IMG/VR virus record: IMGVR_UViG_3300004807_000018
Coordinates: 1 to 64,000 of that record
DNA: 64,000 nucleotides
Origin: a virus
Direction: 5' to 3' (one strand)
Shown here: positions 2,639 to 27,024 of the stretch, piece after piece
Layout of the letters: each line of letters opens with the position of its first letter
How positions within the stretch are numbered: position 1 is the stretch's first letter
Translations under genes and position numbers: made by a program
The notes under the pieces: model-generated
What the model was told of the DNA's origin: nothing
Seen by the model: only the letters and a program-made list of their open reading frames with translations
Database searches by the model: none

Positions 2639-4091
2639 GCCAATGAAACAGCAGCTCGCGGCAGTGCAGAAGCTGAAGCCGTTCAAGGTGGGCGCTTTGT
2701 TCATGGACATGGGCACAGGGAAATCGCTTGCGGCGATCATGCTCGCGCTCTCAAGGCGAAAGGTGAGGCGCGTTGTGTGGTTTTGCCCCATCACACTCAA
2801 ACCCACCATCGAAGTGGAGATCGAAAAGCACGTCGAAGACGCATCCGTGTACGTCTTCGATGACTCAACGTCGTCGACCCACATTCCGAATGCCTATTGG
2901 TACGTGGTTGGCATCGAGTCGATGAGCAGTAGCGACCGTGTCCGGCTCGCAGTGAAGAAACTGATCGATCCGCACACCATGGTGATCCTAGACGAGTCGG
3001 GCTACTGCGCCAACCACAAAGCTGAGCGCACGCGGTGGATTACGGGACTCTCAAGGCCAGCACTGTACCGCCTGATGCTCACAGGCACACCCATTCAAAA
3101 GGGCATACAGGATCTGTTCAGCCAAATGTTCTTTCTCGACGAAAGGATCCTCGGCTACAAAAGCTTCTACTCGTTTGCGGCGAACCATCTGGAATACCAC
3201 GAGCGCAAACGTGGGCTTGTGGTTAGGGCTCACAACGTGCCGTGGATCTCTGCGAAGATCGCCCCGTACGTGTACCAGGTCACCAAAGCCGAATGCCTTG
3301 ATCTGCCAGAGAAGCTCTTTGAACACCACTGGGTCCGCATGACTTGGGAACAAGAAGAGCTTTACAGCCGGGCAAAAGAAACTCTCTTCGCCGAACTCAT
3401 GGAATGCGACGACTCGGACAAAGAAAGCGTGCTCGTCTACCGGCTCTTCAACGCGTGTCGACAGGCAGCTTGTGGGTTCTGGAACGAATATCCGCGCCTG
3501 AGCGGGCGAAAGGGCGACGTAACCCCTACCGTGCACGAGGCGGAGCATCGGCGGCTCGAAACTCTCGAGTCAGTCCTGAGGCAGATTCCCGAGGACGAGA
3601 AGGTCATCATCTGGGCTGAATGGCTGCGCGACGTCGATGACATCAAAGCCATGATCGCCAGAGTGTACGGAGAAGACCAGGCTAGCGAACTGACCGGCAG
3701 GTACAAAGGCAAAGCTCGCGAGCGTGAGGTTAGCCTCTTCCGTGGCCACAGGCGGTTTCTCGTCGGACTTGCCAGCACAGGCGGCCACGGCTACACATTC
3801 ACTGAGGCTTCTTACGCTGGGTTCTACTCCCTGGGTCTTCAGTACCCACTGTACGTCCAGGCTCAGGACCGAATCCACCGCATCAGCCAGACAAAGCCGT
3901 GCACCTATTTCACGATCAACATGCAAGGCACGATCGACGGCACGCTTATGGACCTCATGTCTCGTAAGCAGAGCATCGCTGAGTACCTGCGAGAAAACAT
4001 AGAATCAATCAAGGACAAGACAACCAGGGTTTCCGCACTTCGGAGACTGATGGGGCAAATCAAGGCAGACGAACAAAAAATAGCATCATGA
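2622..4091 (+). CDS. SNF2-like SF2 helicase/ATPase
   Basis: Walker A MDMGTGKS, Walker B ILDESG, motif III LTGTP, motif VI QAQDRIHRISQ. Confidence 0.92.
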   Translation: MILRTEPMKQQLAAVQKLKPFKVGALFMDMGTGKSLAAIMLALSRRKVRRVVWFCPITLKPTIEVEIEKHVEDASVYVFDDSTSSTHIPNAYWYVVGIESMSSSDRVRLAVKKLIDPHTMVILDESGYCANHKAERTRWITGLSRPALYRLMLTGTPIQKGIQDLFSQMFFLDERILGYKSFYSFAANHLEYHERKRGLVVRAHNVPWISAKIAPYVYQVTKAECLDLPEKLFEHHWVRMTWEQEELYSRAKETLFAELMECDDSDKESVLVYRLFNACRQAACGFWNEYPRLSGRKGDVTPTVHEAEHRRLETLESVLRQIPEDEKVIIWAEWLRDVDDIKAMIARVYGEDQASELTGRYKGKAREREVSLFRGHRRFLVGLASTGGHGYTFTEASYAGFYSLGLQYPLYVQAQDRIHRISQTKPCTYFTINMQGTIDGTLMDLMSRKQSIAEYLRENIESIKDKTTRVSALRRLMGQIKADEQKIAS

Positions 4092-20780: not shown

Positions 20781-20814
20781 GAAAAAGGCCCACGCCGTTT
20801 AGGGCATGGGCCTT
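20781..20814 (-). terminator. Intrinsic terminator at the end of the island
   Basis: AAGGCCCA..TGGGCCTT stem with a T-run on the - strand. Confidence 0.65.
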
Positions 20815-20841
20815 GTCGATAGATGTGCGGGCTAGTGGACT

Positions 20842-21021
20842 CTAGTCAAGAATTTCGGATGCCAGAGCGGCTATCCCTTTCAGGATGAGCGGAGTGTCCG
20901 GGTTCGTGGCCCGTCGCTGCGCTTCTCTCATGAGCGCCACCATACGGGGATTGCTTTTGAGCTTTTGGCAAGCATCCTGATATGCGGCTTCGGACATCGG
21001 CTCCAAACTAATACTGTTCAT
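20842..21021 (-). CDS. Hypothetical protein (59 aa, MNSISLEPMSEAAY...)
   Basis: Manually translated ORF below the track cut-off. Confidence 0.5.
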   Translation of the reverse strand: MNSISLEPMSEAAYQDACQKLKSNPRMVALMREAQRRATNPDTPLILKGIAALASEILD

Positions 21022-21060
21022 CGGGGTCTCGTCAGGGTCTTTTGATCGTCCGATTAGGAT

Positions 21061-21582
21061 CTATGAATTCTTGATAACGTAGATCCTCGCCGCGTTAACA
21101 GACTTTCTAAGCTTCCGGTTTTCCTCGGTAAGTTCGCTAATTCGATCTGCCAAGCGGTTGTTTTCTTTTATGACGTCGAGATAAAGCGCGTGCGAACTAT
21201 CAAGATCAAACATGATGTCCCGAGCGATATTTGACCCATCAGCTTCGCCTGTGGCGACTCCTTCCACCTCTCTGGCTGGAATCGTCTCACACTTTTCATT
21301 AGTTTCGCTGTATCCCGCCAATCGGATCCATAATGCGATTTTCTCGGGGTTTGGTAAGGATTCTAAGCTGTGAAATCGACGCCACAAAGAATCTTGTAAC
21401 CTGTGAAGTCGACGATAAAGACTTGGGCTAGTCCAGTATTCAAGGACTGCAGATTTGATTGTTGTGTATTCAGATTTAGGGATTTTTCCGGAGTAGCTCG
21501 CAAACACAAAAGAAGCTTCTTCGTCCAAGCTCCTAAATTGGCGACGGTTGAACTGAGTGTCATGGTAGTTGATTCTTAGCAT
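21061..21582 (-). CDS. Hypothetical protein with C-terminal coiled coil; lower GC
   Basis: 173 aa ORF; visibly more AT-rich than its flanks. Confidence 0.65.
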   Translation of the reverse strand: MLRINYHDTQFNRRQFRSLDEEASFVFASYSGKIPKSEYTTIKSAVLEYWTSPSLYRRLHRLQDSLWRRFHSLESLPNPEKIALWIRLAGYSETNEKCETIPAREVEGVATGEADGSNIARDIMFDLDSSHALYLDVIKENNRLADRISELTEENRKLRKSVNAARIYVIKNS

Positions 21583-21788
21583 ACTAATCGCATCCCGTTG
21601 CTTATCCCGTCCATCGTCTCTCCCTGCTCGCTGGCCGCGCTGTTATCATAAAAAAGGCTTATCGGAAAGGTTCCCGCGCCTTCTTGAGGACTTGTGACGA
21701 CCTTATCGACGGCGCACCCTTTCTTCGCTCCGCACGATAAGCAAACGTTATGAAACACCGCTTTTAACCAGTTCATAGGAGTCTCCAT
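21576..21788 (-). CDS. Hypothetical protein (70 aa)
   Basis: Overlaps the next ORF; CxxC motif. Confidence 0.4.
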   Translation of the reverse strand: METPMNWLKAVFHNVCLSCGAKKGCAVDKVVTSPQEGAGTFPISLFYDNSAASEQGETMDGISNGMRLVC

Positions 21789-21855
21789 GCGCCAAGCGTT
21801 TTCGTGCGCTTCGCGCGGTCGCCCTAAAGGGCTGAAATCTGAGGATTGGCTTTGC

Positions 21856-21888
21856 CGCCCTTCACTTCTAGTCCAGAAGTGAAGGGCG
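21856..21888. terminator. 14-bp stem hairpin
   Basis: CGCCCTTCACTTCT-agtcc-AGAAGTGAAGGGCG just downstream of the 21898 ORF. Confidence 0.6.
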
Positions 21889-21897
21889 TCTAGCAGA

Positions 21898-22347
21898 CTA
21901 CGAGAAGGGCAAAACTTCGACTTCGAGCGCGTTCCGCGCGTCCGTGGCTACGTCCACCCTGCACGGGTAGCCAGGCGGATACCCGGCGACTGAAAGCCAG
22001 CCTTCGACAAGTTGTCCAGGGATGTCAGCCCCGATGCACTCTTCGAGCAAGTAGCCCTTGCGAGCCGTGAGGGTGAAATGTCCACCGTACGACAGATCGC
22101 GCAGCGTCCAGTTGTGGACCTTCCGGTCGTCAAACCAAACCTCAAGGGTCGCTTCTGTCTGGCTTACGTCGACATGCCCTTCGAGTCTGATCTTCGACTG
22201 GTCGAATCTGTAGGTTCGGTCAAGAACTCGACTCAGCGATGCCTGGACTTCAGGGAACCGCACGAGGTCGATCTCGTTGCCCCGTGCGGGGCGATGACAA
22301 TTCACATATGGGCTCGAGATTTTCTTTCTCGGCTTTTTCTCGCTCAC
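21898..22347 (-). CDS. Unknown protein, paralog A (149 aa)
   Basis: Aligns end to end with 23759-24208 (EIDL..PE.QASL, LEVWF, L.DL.YGG.F, WL.V.GYP.GYPCR.DV). Confidence 0.8.
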   Translation of the reverse strand: MSEKKPRKKISSPYVNCHRPARGNEIDLVRFPEVQASLSRVLDRTYRFDQSKIRLEGHVDVSQTEATLEVWFDDRKVHNWTLRDLSYGGHFTLTARKGYLLEECIGADIPGQLVEGWLSVAGYPPGYPCRVDVATDARNALEVEVLPFS

Positions 22348-22401
22348 GTAATATCTCCTTCAACAGGTACCTTCCTGTTGGTGAGATTAGTATACAAACT
22401 T

Positions 22402-23232
22402 CTACTTGTTTTGGAGTCCGATTTCAACGGCGTCTTTCTCTGACCACTTCTTCTGCAGCCAGATGAGGCCCTTGCCCGTAACAAGGGTTCGGCAGTAAAC
22501 GTGCGTTTCACCTGTCTTAGCGTGCTTGTAGGACTTTTCCACAACCCGGAAGTAGCCACGCTCCACATACTCTTGCTTCGGCACCCAAGAGCGCCCTTCC
22601 ATCATCACGATGCCTTGCGCCTGAAGGAACTTCCACAACCGCTGCTCGCCGGTCTTCAGCACCTTGGCAACCTCGTTAACCACCTGAGCCTCGACTGCGC
22701 CCGCTACGTGGTCATGGAACTCCACGACAGGAGCAAGCGCCTTCATCTTCATCTCTAGCGCCTCTTTGGCCTCCAGTTCGGCGGCATAAGCTCGCAGCGC
22801 CTCAGGCAGAGACTTCGGCAGATCGGTCTTGAGCTCCGCCTCACGGGTCTTAATCGCGAAGTAGGTTTGAGCGGCTGCAATCTCGGGCTTGCGAGGATCG
22901 CCGTTCATCGCCACGAGGTAAGCAGCGTAGCGGGTCAGGTGGAAATCGGCTACGGGTATCTGTATCCCGCCGTGTCGATTGCGACTGTCCTTGATTTTCG
23001 TGGCGTCACGAAAAGCTAGAACTACATCTTGTCCAACGTTCGAGGCGGCTGCCCTTGCGCGGTCGATGCTCTCGGAGAAGTTTTCCCACCGGTCGTACCC
23101 AAGAATGGGCATCAAGTCTCGAGCGCTCCAATACTCGGAGCCGTCTTCTCGCACTTTCCGAATCAAGTCAAACGGAGACGTAATGGCGGAGGATTGACCT
23201 CCTGTGGCAAGATAGGTTTCTTTTGTGTTCAT
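22402..23232 (-). CDS. Phage antirepressor: BRO/DinD-like N-domain plus KilAC (ANT) C-domain
   Basis: EYWSARDLMPILGY.RWENF, LTRYAAYLVAMNGDPRKPEIAAAQTYF; LPKSLPEALRAYA; PKQEYVERGYF, TLVTGKGL.W. Confidence 0.9.
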   Translation of the reverse strand: MNTKETYLATGGQSSAITSPFDLIRKVREDGSEYWSARDLMPILGYDRWENFSESIDRARAAASNVGQDVVLAFRDATKIKDSRNRHGGIQIPVADFHLTRYAAYLVAMNGDPRKPEIAAAQTYFAIKTREAELKTDLPKSLPEALRAYAAELEAKEALEMKMKALAPVVEFHDHVAGAVEAQVVNEVAKVLKTGEQRLWKFLQAQGIVMMEGRSWVPKQEYVERGYFRVVEKSYKHAKTGETHVYCRTLVTGKGLIWLQKKWSEKDAVEIGLQNK

Positions 23233-23338
23233 GGCTGTTACCCCCTCGTACGGGTATTGGCTCACGGGCGGTGGTAACGACACCGCCCGCTTTGTTCTAG
23301 AACCAGGGCCGAGCCTAGGCCCAAATCATGAGTGCTCG

Positions 23339-23560
23339 TTAAAAGGCGCTACGTCGATCGACATGCAATTTCGTGCTCCCCGATATTGGGGACCTCAAAT
23401 CTTCATAGTCGACGCTCAGGACGTACTCGGTTCTGACTCCTCGATTTCCCGCTCCCCGATTTTGGGGAGCGGTGTCCTCATATGTCGCATAGCCAGCGCC
23501 GTCCACAAAACCGTATTGATGGAACCGATCTCGTGGCGAACGATTGCCGAGTTTAAGATG
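23339..23560 (-). pseudogene. Remnant of an AntA/AntB-type antirepressor N-terminal domain
   Basis: Start-less frame reads DRFHQYGFVDGAGYATYEDTAPQNRGAGNRGVRTEYVLSVDYEDLRSPISGSTK. Confidence 0.6.
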
Positions 23561-23790
23561 TGATTGCTCAAAATTGTCCTCGCAAATAGAACGACAAAAA
23601 TGCCCAAAAGGGGCACCAGATCATTTTCCCGGCGCCGGGAAAATGATCTGGTGCCAGTCGCCGAGCCTGTCCGTGGCGGATCATCTTGCTGGTGTCAGCA
23701 AGATGATCGCCATCCTCGATGACCAAGTCTTTCGCGTGTGTGTTCATCGTCGTCAGCGCTAGTTGAAGGGAGCTACGTCGATCGACATGC
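23348..23790. repeat. Array of palindromic antirepressor-like segments bracketed by a 19-bp direct repeat
   Basis: Palindromes at 23377-23392, 23449-23472, 23612-23655 (perfect 44 bp) and 23679-23708; GCTACGTCGATCGACATGC at 23348-23366 and 23772-23790. Confidence 0.85.
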
Positions 23791-24208
23791 CGTTCTTGGC
23801 GTCTACAGACACGTCGATTCGGCAGGGATAACCTGCGGGATATCCCGACACTTCTAGCCACTCATTGGCGAATCGGTCTGGCAGATTGCGCTTTGCGCTT
23901 GCATCTAGCGACCTTCCGGGGCGAGCGATCACGACAAAGTCGCCACCGTAAGCGAGGTCCTTTAGGTTCCAGTAGTGGACTCTTCTTTCTCCAAACCAGA
24001 CTTCAAGATCGGCTTCGGTTTCGCCAGGGTTGACGATCCCGCTGATCTTCAAATCGTCAAGATTGAATCCGTAGGTCTTTTCCAAGATTCGCTTTAGCGA
24101 TGCTTGTGCCTCTGGATAATGGGCAAGGTCAATTTCTCCGACCGTGACCGGGCGTCCGATTTTGACGAAAGGACTAATACTCTTTGCCTTGGCTGTTACA
24201 CTCTTCAT
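23759..24208 (-). CDS. Unknown protein, paralog B (149 aa)
   Basis: Probable ATG at 24208 (MKSVTAK); paralog of 21898-22347. Confidence 0.8.
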   Translation of the reverse strand: MKSVTAKAKSISPFVKIGRPVTVGEIDLAHYPEAQASLKRILEKTYGFNLDDLKISGIVNPGETEADLEVWFGERRVHYWNLKDLAYGGDFVVIARPGRSLDASAKRNLPDRFANEWLEVSGYPAGYPCRIDVSVDAKNGMSIDVAPFN

Positions 24209-24287
24209 GTGCTTGCGCTCAGTTCGCAGGCATCGCGCCTCGGGATGGTCGAGCATCGCCGGGGCTTTTCTTTGCCTGACTGATCGT

Positions 24288-24325
24288 ATTATACACGTAT
24301 ATAAACGTATTCATGCGTGTATAAT
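24288..24325. promoter_or_regulatory. Back-to-back divergent promoters / operator
   Basis: ATTATACACG (24288-97) and CGTGTATAAT (24316-25) form a perfect IR, each arm containing TATAAT facing outward. Confidence 0.7.
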
Positions 24326-24331
24326 GCTTTT

Positions 24332-24553
24332 ATGAGCGATATGACGCTAAAATCATCCATGCCTCGGAAGGCCACGGGAATCAAGCGAAAGCCAGTCACT
24401 GTCACCCTAGACACGGACACAAGAACCAAGCTTGAATTTGTCGCCTCCGAATACGGGTATAGCTTGAGTCTGTTCCTTGAACGAGCCGGCTTGTGGTACG
24501 CCAAAGAGATCGAAAAGGACCCTTCTAAACTGCGCCAGCCTGCGGAAGACTGA
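24332..24553 (+). CDS. Ribbon-helix-helix transcriptional regulator
   Basis: MPRKATGIKRKPVTVTLD..TRTKLEFVASEYGYSLSLFLERA. Confidence 0.7.
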   Translation: MSDMTLKSSMPRKATGIKRKPVTVTLDTDTRTKLEFVASEYGYSLSLFLERAGLWYAKEIEKDPSKLRQPAED

Positions 24554-24574
24554 CTCGTGGCGTAAAATGCCGTC

Positions 24575-25366
24575 GTGCTTCAACAAGCAAAGTACTGCGC
24601 TCGTTGCCGTTCTGCATGCCATCCATCAATGGCTTTTTGTCCTCAGTGCGGGCAACCTTTCGCGGTTGCGCAACCGACCTATGCGCCGGTCCAGCCTGCA
24701 GCAGCGATTCCACGAACGACCAAAGATCCGGTCGAGTGGAGGTTGTCTGTCGTGTGGCACTGGATCTTTCTCACGATTGCCACTCTTGCGGCTATCGTGA
24801 CACTTCAGTACGTCTGCGGGACTTTTCAGGCGTTCTACGCTGAGCGATCGACCGGTGTCAGCAATTCGTTTGCTGACTGGTTCATCTCAAGAATGGCTTG
24901 GATCGCAGCGCTTGGTTTCGTGGTCTCATGCGCGGCTGTCACCTTCATAGGCACGCGCCTAAGGCGACTCTACGTCTATGAAGCGCCTTATTATTCGGAG
25001 TGGAAGAACGCTTTCTGCGGCTACGCTTTTGCGCTCTTTGTGTTTGTTGTTGGAGACGGCCTGCTGACCCACACCCTTGGAGGCCTTACCCCTTCCTCTG
25101 ATGGTCAAGGATTCAAACAGGGAATGTCCGAACAAGAAGTGATGAGGGCATTTCCAGATCAGTCGCTCACGCCTCGCTCGTATCCTCCAAACAGCCAGAT
25201 CGAAACCTACGGCGTGTTTGTTGGAACTGGAGACGAGTCGATCGCGGCTGACCTATCGTCGAAGAAGACTGCCATGTTTGTGTTTTCTCAAGGGCGTCTT
25301 GTTTCAGAGTCGGTTTGCACCTTTACTGACGGCTCAAATATGCCTACCGTCGAACGAGTCTTTTAG
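24575..25366 (+). CDS. Zinc-ribbon membrane protein (moron; possibly superinfection exclusion)
   Basis: CARC...CPQCG at the N-terminus, three hydrophobic segments, GMSEQEV (BamE/SmpA-like) C-terminal domain; opposite strand to the tail genes. Confidence 0.65.
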   Translation: MLQQAKYCARCRSACHPSMAFCPQCGQPFAVAQPTYAPVQPAAAIPRTTKDPVEWRLSVVWHWIFLTIATLAAIVTLQYVCGTFQAFYAERSTGVSNSFADWFISRMAWIAALGFVVSCAAVTFIGTRLRRLYVYEAPYYSEWKNAFCGYAFALFVFVVGDGLLTHTLGGLTPSSDGQGFKQGMSEQEVMRAFPDQSLTPRSYPPNSQIETYGVFVGTGDESIAADLSSKKTAMFVFSQGRLVSESVCTFTDGSNMPTVERVF

Positions 25367-27024
25367 AGGATCCCCCAGCTTGCCGACTGCCATCCTGGCG
25401 TCAGCCCAGGAATTACCTTCCCTGGCATTGAACTACTTGCTCGCGGCCCTCCTCCGAATTGTCCTTCTCGCACGGCATTGTTCAGGCGGTTCACTGCATC
25501 AGTGTTCTTTTCGACTGCTTCCTTATGGCTGTCGAGCGGTAGGTGAAGCGCCGTCCTGATGTTGTCAACGATATTGTTGACCGCACTTAGGATGTTGCCA
25601 TAGATCCGAGAAACAAAGGACAGAATGAGCTGTCCGGCCTGAATGAACGGGTCAATGATCGGCTTGACAAGAAGGTCGTAGCCTCCAATCACAAACTTCT
25701 GAATGGCATCGCCAAGCGTCTGGAACATCCTGCCAACCGTTTTCAGCGTTGGCCCGAATGTATCGCTCAACCACTCCGACGTGGTCTTAATAGCGGTGTT
25801 TAGCGTGCTAATGAAGTACGCGAACTGCTTCATGTCGTTGCCAAACAGGATGACAATGAAGTCCTTGATGCCTTGAGCGGCCACGGCCATGCTCGCAGAG
25901 AAATCTGCTGCAGCCCTCATGTTTTCAAAGGAGCCTGATCCTTGTCTCTGATTGCGCATCACGTCGTAGACCGGTTGAGACAAGAAGTAGGCACCGGCCG
26001 CATCGGGCGAACCAGCCATCTCTGCGCGCTTTCTTGACTGGTTCAAGTCTTTTGAGTTGCGGATCCAGTCGAGAACCTTGAGTCCCTTGGTGTTGTAGTT
26101 GTTGTCACCGAACGGGCCGCCGAGCGGATTGACGCCTGCACCGGCAGCAGCGATCGGCCCAAATCCACTTAGCAAGTTGCTACCAAGCCCCGCGACATCA
26201 ATTCCTAGAGCTGCCCCAAATAGGTTTGCCGACCGAGCTTCGCCAACAGTGCCTCCGCCCCGTACAAGCGACGTGCGCACTTCATTCAACGTGCTGACCG
26301 TTGATTTCATGGCCATTGCAAGCGCCAGGGATTGTGCAGCAGCAGCAGCAAACGGCGCTGCAACCCCAGCAGCAGTTCCCGCCAGACCAGCAGTTCCCCC
26401 GGCAGCACTCGCGGATCCCGCCAGGTTCAGAATGCCGCCGATGGTTGGGTTCATGCCCATCGAAAGCATGTGCCCAAATATAGGCATGAGTTGCAATTTC
26501 CCGTTGGGACCGATTGCGGCCCTGCTGTTGTTGATCAGCTTCCTGATTGGGTCCACTACTGGCGGAGCTTTGGGAGAAGACTTTTTGATCAGATTGTTGT
26601 AGGCAGTGTTCACCTGCTGCTGCGCAATCTTCGTCGCATAAGGATCTCCCGCAACACGAGCGTCATGTAGTGCCCCGTAAGCCTTTCGAAGGTTGGAATA
26701 AATCGGCAGGTTAAGTGGGCCATTGTAGCCTGAACCACCACCCGAGCCTCTCCTACCTCCGCCACTCCCCCCTGAGGATCCTCCAGAGGAAATCTTCGGG
26801 ATTTTGATTCCCTGCATGCCGCCGATCGAGGCGACCATTTTTTGAAAGGCAGTCGCGACCTCATTGGCCAGGAACTTTGTGTTCGCAAGGGAGATGTTCA
26901 GCTTGTGAATTCCAGCGTTCACATCACTCGTCGACTTCTTGACCGCCTCCATACTGGATTGAAGGCTTCGAATCGCCGCAAAGGCGGTTTGATCCTTGAT
27001 TTTTGCATCGACAATAATCGCCAT
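25363..27024 (-). CDS. Tail tape measure protein (553 aa)
   Basis: Ala/Gly-rich helical protein directly after the tail chaperones. Confidence 0.75.
   Translation of the reverse strand: MAIIVDAKIKDQTAFAAIRSLQSSMEAVKKSTSDVNAGIHKLNISLANTKFLANEVATAFQKMVASIGGMQGIKIPKISSGGSSGGSGGGRRGSGGGSGYNGPLNLPIYSNLRKAYGALHDARVAGDPYATKIAQQQVNTAYNNLIKKSSPKAPPVVDPIRKLINNSRAAIGPNGKLQLMPIFGHMLSMGMNPTIGGILNLAGSASAAGGTAGLAGTAAGVAAPFAAAAAQSLALAMAMKSTVSTLNEVRTSLVRGGGTVGEARSANLFGAALGIDVAGLGSNLLSGFGPIAAAGAGVNPLGGPFGDNNYNTKGLKVLDWIRNSKDLNQSRKRAEMAGSPDAAGAYFLSQPVYDVMRNQRQGSGSFENMRAAADFSASMAVAAQGIKDFIVILFGNDMKQFAYFISTLNTAIKTTSEWLSDTFGPTLKTVGRMFQTLGDAIQKFVIGGYDLLVKPIIDPFIQAGQLILSFVSRIYGNILSAVNNIVDNIRTALHLPLDSHKEAVEKNTDAVNRLNNAVREGQFGGGPRASSSMPGKVIPGLTPGWQSASWGIL

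Follow-up and report, generated by a model that had tools for sequence, protein, structure and literature searches.

The virus record IMGVR_UViG_3300004807_000018 of IMG/VR, 82 kb long, rated 88% complete by CheckV and found in freshwater metagenomes of two studies, carries an antirepressor gene preceded by a 440-bp spacer that holds an array of four palindromes. We analysed the first 64,000 nt of the record (the window) and, where stated, the whole genome. The array sits in a block of accessory genes of ~4.5 kb with tail-type genes on either side. The gene order there, on the (-) strand, is pA165 (24256-23759), the spacer, the antirepressor (23232-22402) and pB149 (22347-21898).

All four palindromes were found where the original prediction had placed them, together with an open frame lacking a start codon and a direct repeat bracketing the array (Table 1). 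On the (-) strand the class 1 palindromes indeed read DHFPGAGKMI and DHLADTSKMI, and the hairpin noted in the intact antirepressor (22995-23014, AFRDATKI) is likewise present. The class 2 palindromes are both taken in by a 25-nt direct repeat (23368-92 / 23444-68, 88% identical). The start-less frame has 93 open codons (23339-23620, (-)) and reads ..QYGFVDG..EYVLS..EDLRSPISGSTK... The bracketing repeat, exact over 19 nt, is the core of a 41-nt repeat with 83% identity (23326-66 / 23750-90).

Table 1. Array palindromes, gene relics and neighbouring features, in window positions
Feature	Position	Strand	Remark
pB149	21898..22347	-	pA165 paralogue, downstream of the antirepressor
Intact antirepressor	22402..23232	-	Bro-N + ANT/KilAC (Pfam); PHROG 'anti-repressor Ant'
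9-bp hairpin in leader	23265..23289	-	just upstream of the antirepressor ribosome-binding site
Direct repeat copy 1	23326..23376	-	pA-family stump
Class 2 palindrome, 5-bp stem	23377..23392	-	AntA-type, in partial duplicate of AntA segment
AntA N-terminal domain remnant	23408..23620	-	no start codon, start and end of domain absent
Class 2 palindrome, 9-bp stem, 6-nt loop	23449..23472	-	AntA-type, inside AntA remnant
Terminator-like tail	23590..23617	-	small hairpin then T-rich run, directly after the 44-nt palindrome; consensus scan
Class 1 palindrome, perfect 44-nt dyad (22+22 nt)	23612..23655		orphan, Bro-N/DinD-type
Class 1 palindrome, 13-nt arms, 4-nt loop	23679..23708		orphan, Bro-N/DinD-type; 100% complementarity
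Direct repeat copy 2	23750..23790		true 3' end of pA165 (..AKNGMSIDVAPFN, then stop)
pA165, 165 aa	23759..24256	-	upstream of the array; last codons are one copy of the bracketing repeat
Inverted repeat (24288-24325), then small divergent gene (24332-24553)	24288..24553	+	repeat + open reading frame

The spacer had been described as having no credible gene, and this holds. The best candidate, an open reading frame (ORF) of 59 aa with an ATG start (23568-23747, (-)) that includes both class 1 palindromes, has no homologue or family match, and neither it nor the start-less frame gave a tblastn match in 50,697 phage records. The concentration of palindromes is marked: among the 11 perfect stems of at least 9 bp with loops of at most 8 nt in the window, four fall within 444 nt (23265-23708), and RNA of the (-) strand over 23240-23775 folds with z = -8.3 relative to shuffled sequences. 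Further copies of the palindromes were found nowhere else in the 82-kb genome, and CRISPR-like repeats or repetitive extragenic palindromic (REP)-like repeats were rejected for this reason. Rfam 15, searched over 20800-25400, gave no family match (best scores 15.8-20.1 bits against gathering scores of 40-108).

The origin of the array palindromes becomes apparent from homologues of the resident gene. Antirepressor homologues, 34-57% identical to it, were collected from 80 loci, and the codons aligned to AFRDATKI were cut out. Nearly all of the Bro-N/DinD loci carry a palindrome at these codons, with arms that differ between genes. Palindromes of at least 9 pairs, with at most one mismatch, occur at the motif in 70% of 64 distinct homologues, compared to 1.6% of 320 control windows from the same genes that were passed through the same best-palindrome procedure. 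An ungapped alignment of 54 sites (A3) is biased, each site being centred on its own best palindrome; with that bias, 88.6% of its cells are paired, against 60.8% when shuffled (0/500 shuffles reach the observed value) and 36-59% when partners are slid, and double-sided changes number 166 against 58 expected. The dinD gene of E. coli K-12 has a dyad of 13/15 bp at the same codons (DDHFEEILDMV).

In 38 genes the dyad is centred on a codon boundary, and in 15 its centre lies one base further on, so that two reading phases are in use; the core TTCCCGGCGCCGGGAA encodes LPGAGK in one gene, and another gene translates it as SRRRE. With two reading frames in use, the palindrome cannot stem from a constraint on the protein. 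Among the cells of the sense strand that are not Watson-Crick pairs, 22 are G-U and 16 are A-C, without a G-U excess, and these counts would fit a symmetrical constraint at the DNA level somewhat better than an mRNA hairpin. Taken together, the two frames and the lack of preference for G-U indicate that the constraint acts on DNA, rather than on the protein or specifically on mRNA. In an AlphaFold model of the antirepressor (mean pLDDT, the predicted local distance difference test score, 85; mean 88 for residues 71-80), the peptide encoded by the palindrome is predicted to form a small beta-hairpin after a helix, with strands at residues 74-76 and 79-81. No solved structure was found for the antirepressor by sequence match, and a fold search with the whole model gave no clear match to its N-domain (best Foldseek E 0.09).

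AntA genes carry a counterpart. From the AntA gene of one fetched locus, 80 AntA loci were gathered. In the stretch that separates YGF..DF from GGRP..EY.L, the best palindrome has a mean of 9.3 pairs, against 5.5 in control windows. A centred alignment of 43 AntA sequences has 92% of its cells paired versus 57.5% when shuffled (0/500 reach the observed value), with double-sided changes of 120 versus 30. Genes of both families, Bro-N/DinD and AntA, carry a dyad of ~9-13 bp per arm at a fixed place in the DNA-binding domain, and its arms change together.

Other palindromes were seen at the gathered loci. The DinD-like gene of L036 is preceded by a classical Bro-N gene (2905-3693), which has a palindrome of its own (3066-3090), GGGGGTGAT..ATCACCCCC, at the RGVMKFITP codons, so other Bro-N subfamilies may also carry a coding palindrome. 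Many prophage-derived loci (L017, L019, L026, L031, L057, L058, L062, L067, L069, L072 and L076) have a second palindrome, GGCCGCCAGCTG, a 6-nt loop and CAGCTGACGGCC, with variants, ~250 nt upstream of the one within the gene; it may be a conserved operator or terminator of this class of antirepressor gene. When loci L094-L097 are compared with L091, some genes match the AntA query at 65-70% identity beyond about residue 67, and their N-terminal domain is another one, which bears a palindrome of its own, AAGGGTCGCA..TGCAACCCTT; at L097 the homology begins right at the position of the AntA palindrome. The comparison gives a hint that domains may have been swapped at a junction close to the dyad.

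Covariance models were used to assign the array palindromes to these families. Model R1 was trained on the 54 Bro-N/DinD sites, excluding the array and including the resident gene, and was run over the window without filters; model R2 was trained on 43 AntA sites from genes of other phages. In 64 kb, R1 finds just three significant sites, namely the two class 1 palindromes (23614-53, 31.6 bits, E 1.7e-5; 23674-713, 30.6 bits on the (+) and 26.7 on the (-) strand, E about 3e-5) and the palindrome of the resident antirepressor (21.3 bits); the class 2 sites score just 12 bits. The class 1 dyads have the ~9-13 bp per arm, the T-rich 5' arm and the A-rich 3' arm that mark the R1 class. The best match of R2 in the window is 23441-80 (24.9 bits, E 2e-4) and its second best is 23365-404 (16.9 bits, E 0.04). 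Both are on the (-) strand, where both class 2 sites score higher, and which is the sense strand of the AntA-like frame.

The array is composed of two Bro-N/DinD-type and two AntA-type palindromes. Their derivation from antirepressor genes, central to the original prediction, is thereby borne out, since models trained on such genes find exactly these four sites in the array; R1 also agrees with the proposal that the intact antirepressor hairpin is the same element as class 1. The core of the 44-nt palindrome is moreover identical at 28/30 positions to the in-gene palindrome of an unrelated phage locus, L018.

What flanks the palindromes differs between the two classes. The (-) frame 23620-23339 can be aligned with AntA N-domains, beginning near residue 10 and reaching the EY.LS.D motif (E ~1e-5 against a small database). 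Its YGF..hairpin..EY.L layout had been recognised as that of AntA, and Pfam AntA and the alignments of AntA homologues concur. The Pfam profile (PF08346) matches at positions 22-57 of 68, with 17.3 and 16.6 bits, under its 27-bit cut-off. With no ATG, GTG or TTG ahead of the domain, the frame reads as a remnant rather than a gene. A partial second copy of the AntA palindrome segment directly follows the remnant; its ..DYEDLRSPISGSTKLHV resembles ..DYVKTEDLRSPNSGSTKSRV of locus L123 (BLASTP, 53% identity over 32 aa).

For the class 1 palindromes, a hidden Markov model made from 72 Bro-N/DinD homologues found no similarity in the six frames of 23240-23800, Pfam Bro-N matched the intact gene alone, and an ORF from either strand gave no significant BLASTP match to E. 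coli DinD (E 0.05-0.2). Lying outside any Bro-N/DinD reading frame, they are orphans.

Two pA-family genes delimit the array with their 3' ends, and of one of them no more than the final 13 codons is left. This stump (23338-23376, (-)) encodes ARNCMSIDVAPFN (tblastn, 11/13 identity). Compared with pA165 it has synonymous changes and a mutated stop codon, and so comes from a third, diverged pA paralogue rather than from a fresh duplication. A decayed third pA gene filling the whole spacer was considered and is ruled out, just these 13 codons being present.

Orphan palindromes are uncommon. Over 528 kb from 68 Bro-N loci, R1 gives one in-gene match per locus. The exception is the L036/L037 lineage, where two orphans precede an antirepressor whose N-terminal part seems to be missing; the first orphan shares its inner sequence with the palindrome of the gene itself. 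Over 261 kb from 75 AntA loci, R2 matches are almost all in-gene. One off-gene match lies in a second, broken AntA gene, which leaves a single off-gene match as a possible orphan. In these sets, clusters of orphans are unusual and not a standard part of antirepressor loci.

The reading that we favour, with a probability of roughly 0.55, is that remains of broken antirepressor genes make up the 440-bp spacer, each fragment centred on the coding palindrome of its family. In its earlier state the locus would have consisted of modules in tandem, with a pA-family gene and then an antirepressor gene in each; deletions and duplications at the palindromes or close to them would have removed the middle modules. 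The family-specific coding palindromes would have survived this loss, one of them within a recognisable AntA stump. Decay of antirepressor genes, which the original prediction had named among the things that would refute it, is what the AntA portion of the array looks like, a truncated and partly duplicated gene remnant. The pair of orphans at L036/L037, ahead of a gene that seems truncated at its 5' end, offers a parallel.

The 44-nt palindrome may meanwhile have acquired a use. After it on the (-) strand come CC, TTTT and another T-run, with nothing comparable on the (+) strand, and a consensus scan flags 23617-23599 (-) with its T-run as terminator-like. Lying between pA165 and the antirepressor, palindrome and T-run now probably serve to terminate or attenuate transcription. 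A T-rich run after a dyad on the transcribed strand is what Rho-independent terminators have; the 22-bp loopless stem is, however, far longer than usual, and the T-run is set back from the stem and broken up. A T-run is missing from the remaining three array palindromes, which in this are unlike such terminators.

Several points weigh against this reading of the spacer. The order of events would have to be deduced from one genome. The class 1 palindromes have no demonstrable gene flanks and could have come about otherwise than by gene decay. Perfect palindromes amid unrecognisable flanks could mean selection for function. The terminator call comes from a consensus scan, and the dyad ends 2 nt before an interrupted T-run. 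Finally, homogenisation by template switching, which the reading calls on for the perfect arms, is a known mechanism but for these orphans a putative one.

That the orphans have stayed perfect, and that one has grown to 44 nt, could reflect either selection for a function in cis or copying from arm to arm by template switching. In the latter case intrastrand template switching would even out the arms once coding constraint is gone. Such quasi-palindrome correction would explain the co-changing arms of the in-gene copies, the perfect and longer orphans and the duplications and truncations centred on dyads. It is a mutational mechanism, however, and does not explain why a dyad sits at fixed codons in two gene families, from actinobacterial phages to E. 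coli dinD.

Selection for function leads to a different account, in which the orphans are cis-regulatory sites: operators or decoys for Bro-N- or AntA-type domains or for the ribbon-helix-helix (RHH)-like protein encoded by the small divergent gene beyond pA165, or leader-RNA hairpins affecting mRNA stability or translation. The array is well placed for this, in the leader between pA165 and the antirepressor and on the transcribed strand, and the region is far more structured than its shuffles. Perfect palindromes stand within otherwise unrecognisable surroundings, the upstream orphan of L036/L037 repeats the inner sequence of the palindrome in its own gene, and Bro proteins bind DNA (PMC2830988). 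On the other hand, the four palindromes are different sequences from two families, none matching the resident palindrome, which makes a single sequence-specific binder unlikely. The four orphans and the in-gene palindrome differ in their inner arms, so that the common half-site expected of operators for one repressor is lacking. Orphans are absent beside nearly all homologous genes, no Rfam family is matched, and in the gene copies G-U is not favoured over A-C, giving no sign of an mRNA-specific constraint. We regard a cis-regulatory role as unlikely on balance, and as the alternative to take most seriously.

The arrangement can be compared with the immI-type control of antirepressors, as in P22, where mnt, arc and ant are accompanied by the sar RNA, and in P1, with c4-icd-ant. 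Like these, the locus has an antirepressor after an upstream gene, a divergent RHH-like gene, an operator-like inverted repeat and a structured leader. It differs in that neither C4 nor another Rfam family is matched, and its leader hairpins are copies of coding palindromes rather than a dedicated antisense RNA.

Arrays of palindromes are also known from other viral genomes with Bro-N genes. In baculoviruses, whose genomes hold many bro (Bro-N) genes, the homologous regions (hr) consist of arrayed imperfect palindromes of 30 bp (PMC2830988). The same paper states that bro genes bind DNA and links them to places where the genome is rearranged. In both cases an array of ~30-bp palindromes lies in a viral genome carrying Bro-N genes. 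The hr, however, are many near-identical copies dispersed round the genome that serve as replication origins or enhancers, whereas our array consists of four different palindromes in one spacer, each traceable to an element of coding sequence.

Insertion would be another way for palindromes to come to lie both in genes and in a spacer. Small mobile or self-propagating hairpin elements, akin to REP elements, miniature inverted-repeat transposable elements (MITEs) or attC sites, could have entered antirepressor genes and spacers alike; this would account for class 1 orphans without gene flanks and for near-identical cores that recur in unrelated phages. It is very improbable, in our judgement, given that the in-gene copies lie at one homologous, in-frame position in every family member, which points to vertical inheritance. 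In addition, the 82-kb genome has no other copies, the class 2 copies carry AntA coding flanks, and a transposase or integron integrase is absent nearby.

Of the two readings in the original prediction, a stored library of donor cassettes and tandem operator or decoy sites, the first is not supported. In this scheme the array would be a set of silent cassettes that replace the palindrome-encoded segment of the antirepressor by gene conversion. The segment does behave as such a scheme would have it, evolving out of step with the rest of the gene. Between homologues, hairpin identity and protein identity have a rank correlation of 0.13, and the segment turns over independently of the gene. The proteins of L045 and L075 are 89% identical, yet the palindromes of their genes are unrelated and differ in phase, lying in a mosaic tract of ~120 nt; those of L035 and L069 are 52% identical and have one identical 24-mer in common. 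In 14 independent close pairs, DNA divergence is 0.14-0.25 (0.11 in one bin) from about -90 to +40 nt of the dyad, and mostly 0.05-0.09 in the nearer flanks. These comparisons of identity and divergence uphold the view that the hairpin lies in a fast-evolving, variable segment of the Bro-N/DinD domain. The resemblance of palindrome 23612-55 to the L018 in-gene palindrome can also be counted in favour of donors.

The array itself lacks what gene conversion would require. Between it and the resident antirepressor, flanking similarity is absent beyond chance matches of 7-14 nt, leaving no array flanks that could guide conversion into that gene. The AntA-type copies have no recipient, the remnant itself being the only AntA-like sequence in the 82-kb genome. 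The divergent tract among relatives is much longer than the sequence kept by the orphans, which retain far less than the tracts exchanged. A reverse transcriptase and an invertase had been reported missing nearby, and a search of the genome extends this, with no RVT_1 and no Resolvase; the one tyrosine integrase is at 78.4 kb, 55 kb from the array. Contigs of two runs, from two freshwater studies, have identical sequence with no variant and no joint, contigs being prone to drop rare variants. They are interrupted at the 44-nt dyad, which is normal for palindromes in de Bruijn assembly. We accordingly hold donor cassettes to be highly improbable.

Known systems of silent-cassette gene conversion include pilE/pilS of Neisseria and vlsE/vls of Borrelia. 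As in these, promoter-less partial copies of a variable segment cluster beside one expressed gene, and that segment evolves out of step with the remainder of the gene. Unlike in these, the array copies lack conserved flanks and belong to two gene families, one of them without a recipient, and no variants were seen.

A related possibility, which we consider a long shot, is that the coding palindromes are recombination signals for swapping the beta-hairpin 'wing' segment, with the orphans as stored or spent exchange partners. If true, this would be hairpin-guided diversification that needs neither a reverse transcriptase nor a dedicated invertase.

Whatever the history of the orphans, the coding-palindrome element itself is widespread. 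No description of a palindrome in antirepressor, Bro-N, dinD or AntA genes was found in the literature searches made, nor was one found in Rfam. A DNA-level signal lies hidden within the coding sequence of two large families of phage and bacterial DNA-binding genes. It is strong enough to impose amino acids and is read in two frames, and E. coli dinD, with more than 40 years of study, is among the carriers. The window presents the palindromes of both families as free-standing copies beside a live antirepressor, and so offers a compact test bed for whether proteins bind them, whether they terminate transcription and whether they promote rearrangement. For annotation, spacer palindromes of this kind should be taken first as antirepressor relics and not as operators, CRISPR-like repeats or new systems.

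The genes around the array form a small group of their own. pA165 and pB149 are paralogues, 45% identical. Pfam and PHROG gave no match for pA165, and their family has just 14 distant homologues among 1.84 billion representative proteins, with Pfam giving no match for the 10 of these that were searched. An identical copy of pA165 is present on a second contig, of 87 kb. Viral contigs searched with pA165, the pA165/pB149 alignment, the tail protein and the exact palindrome gave no match to any of them, and metagenome contigs searched with the pA165/pB149 alignment gave nothing. Members of the pA family are 135-165 aa long; three paralogues, one now the stump at 23338-23376 (-), bracket antirepressor genes. 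Conservation of a W, of G..YP.GYPC and of P.F at the C-terminal end suggests a protein that is real and folded and that travels with antirepressors.

In the antirepressor model, the best VIA-align match (Z 7) is confined to the C-terminal KilAC part (model residues 181-273), and this KilAC/ANT domain aligns with DNA-binding domains of the MerR, excisionase and RacA types at Z 5-7. The alignments hint faintly that the domain may be a winged-helix-like DNA binder.

Directly 3' of pB149 on the (-) strand, a perfect 14-bp stem with a 5-nt loop (21856-21888), scored by neither R1 nor R2, is probably the terminator of that gene. At the other end of the block, a 13-nt inverted repeat, ATTATACACGTAT / ATGCGTGTATAAT, separates pA165 from the small divergent gene. 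Pfam gave no match for the product of this gene, which by inspection looks like a ribbon-helix-helix repressor; gene and inverted repeat together are a possible controller of the pA165-antirepressor unit.

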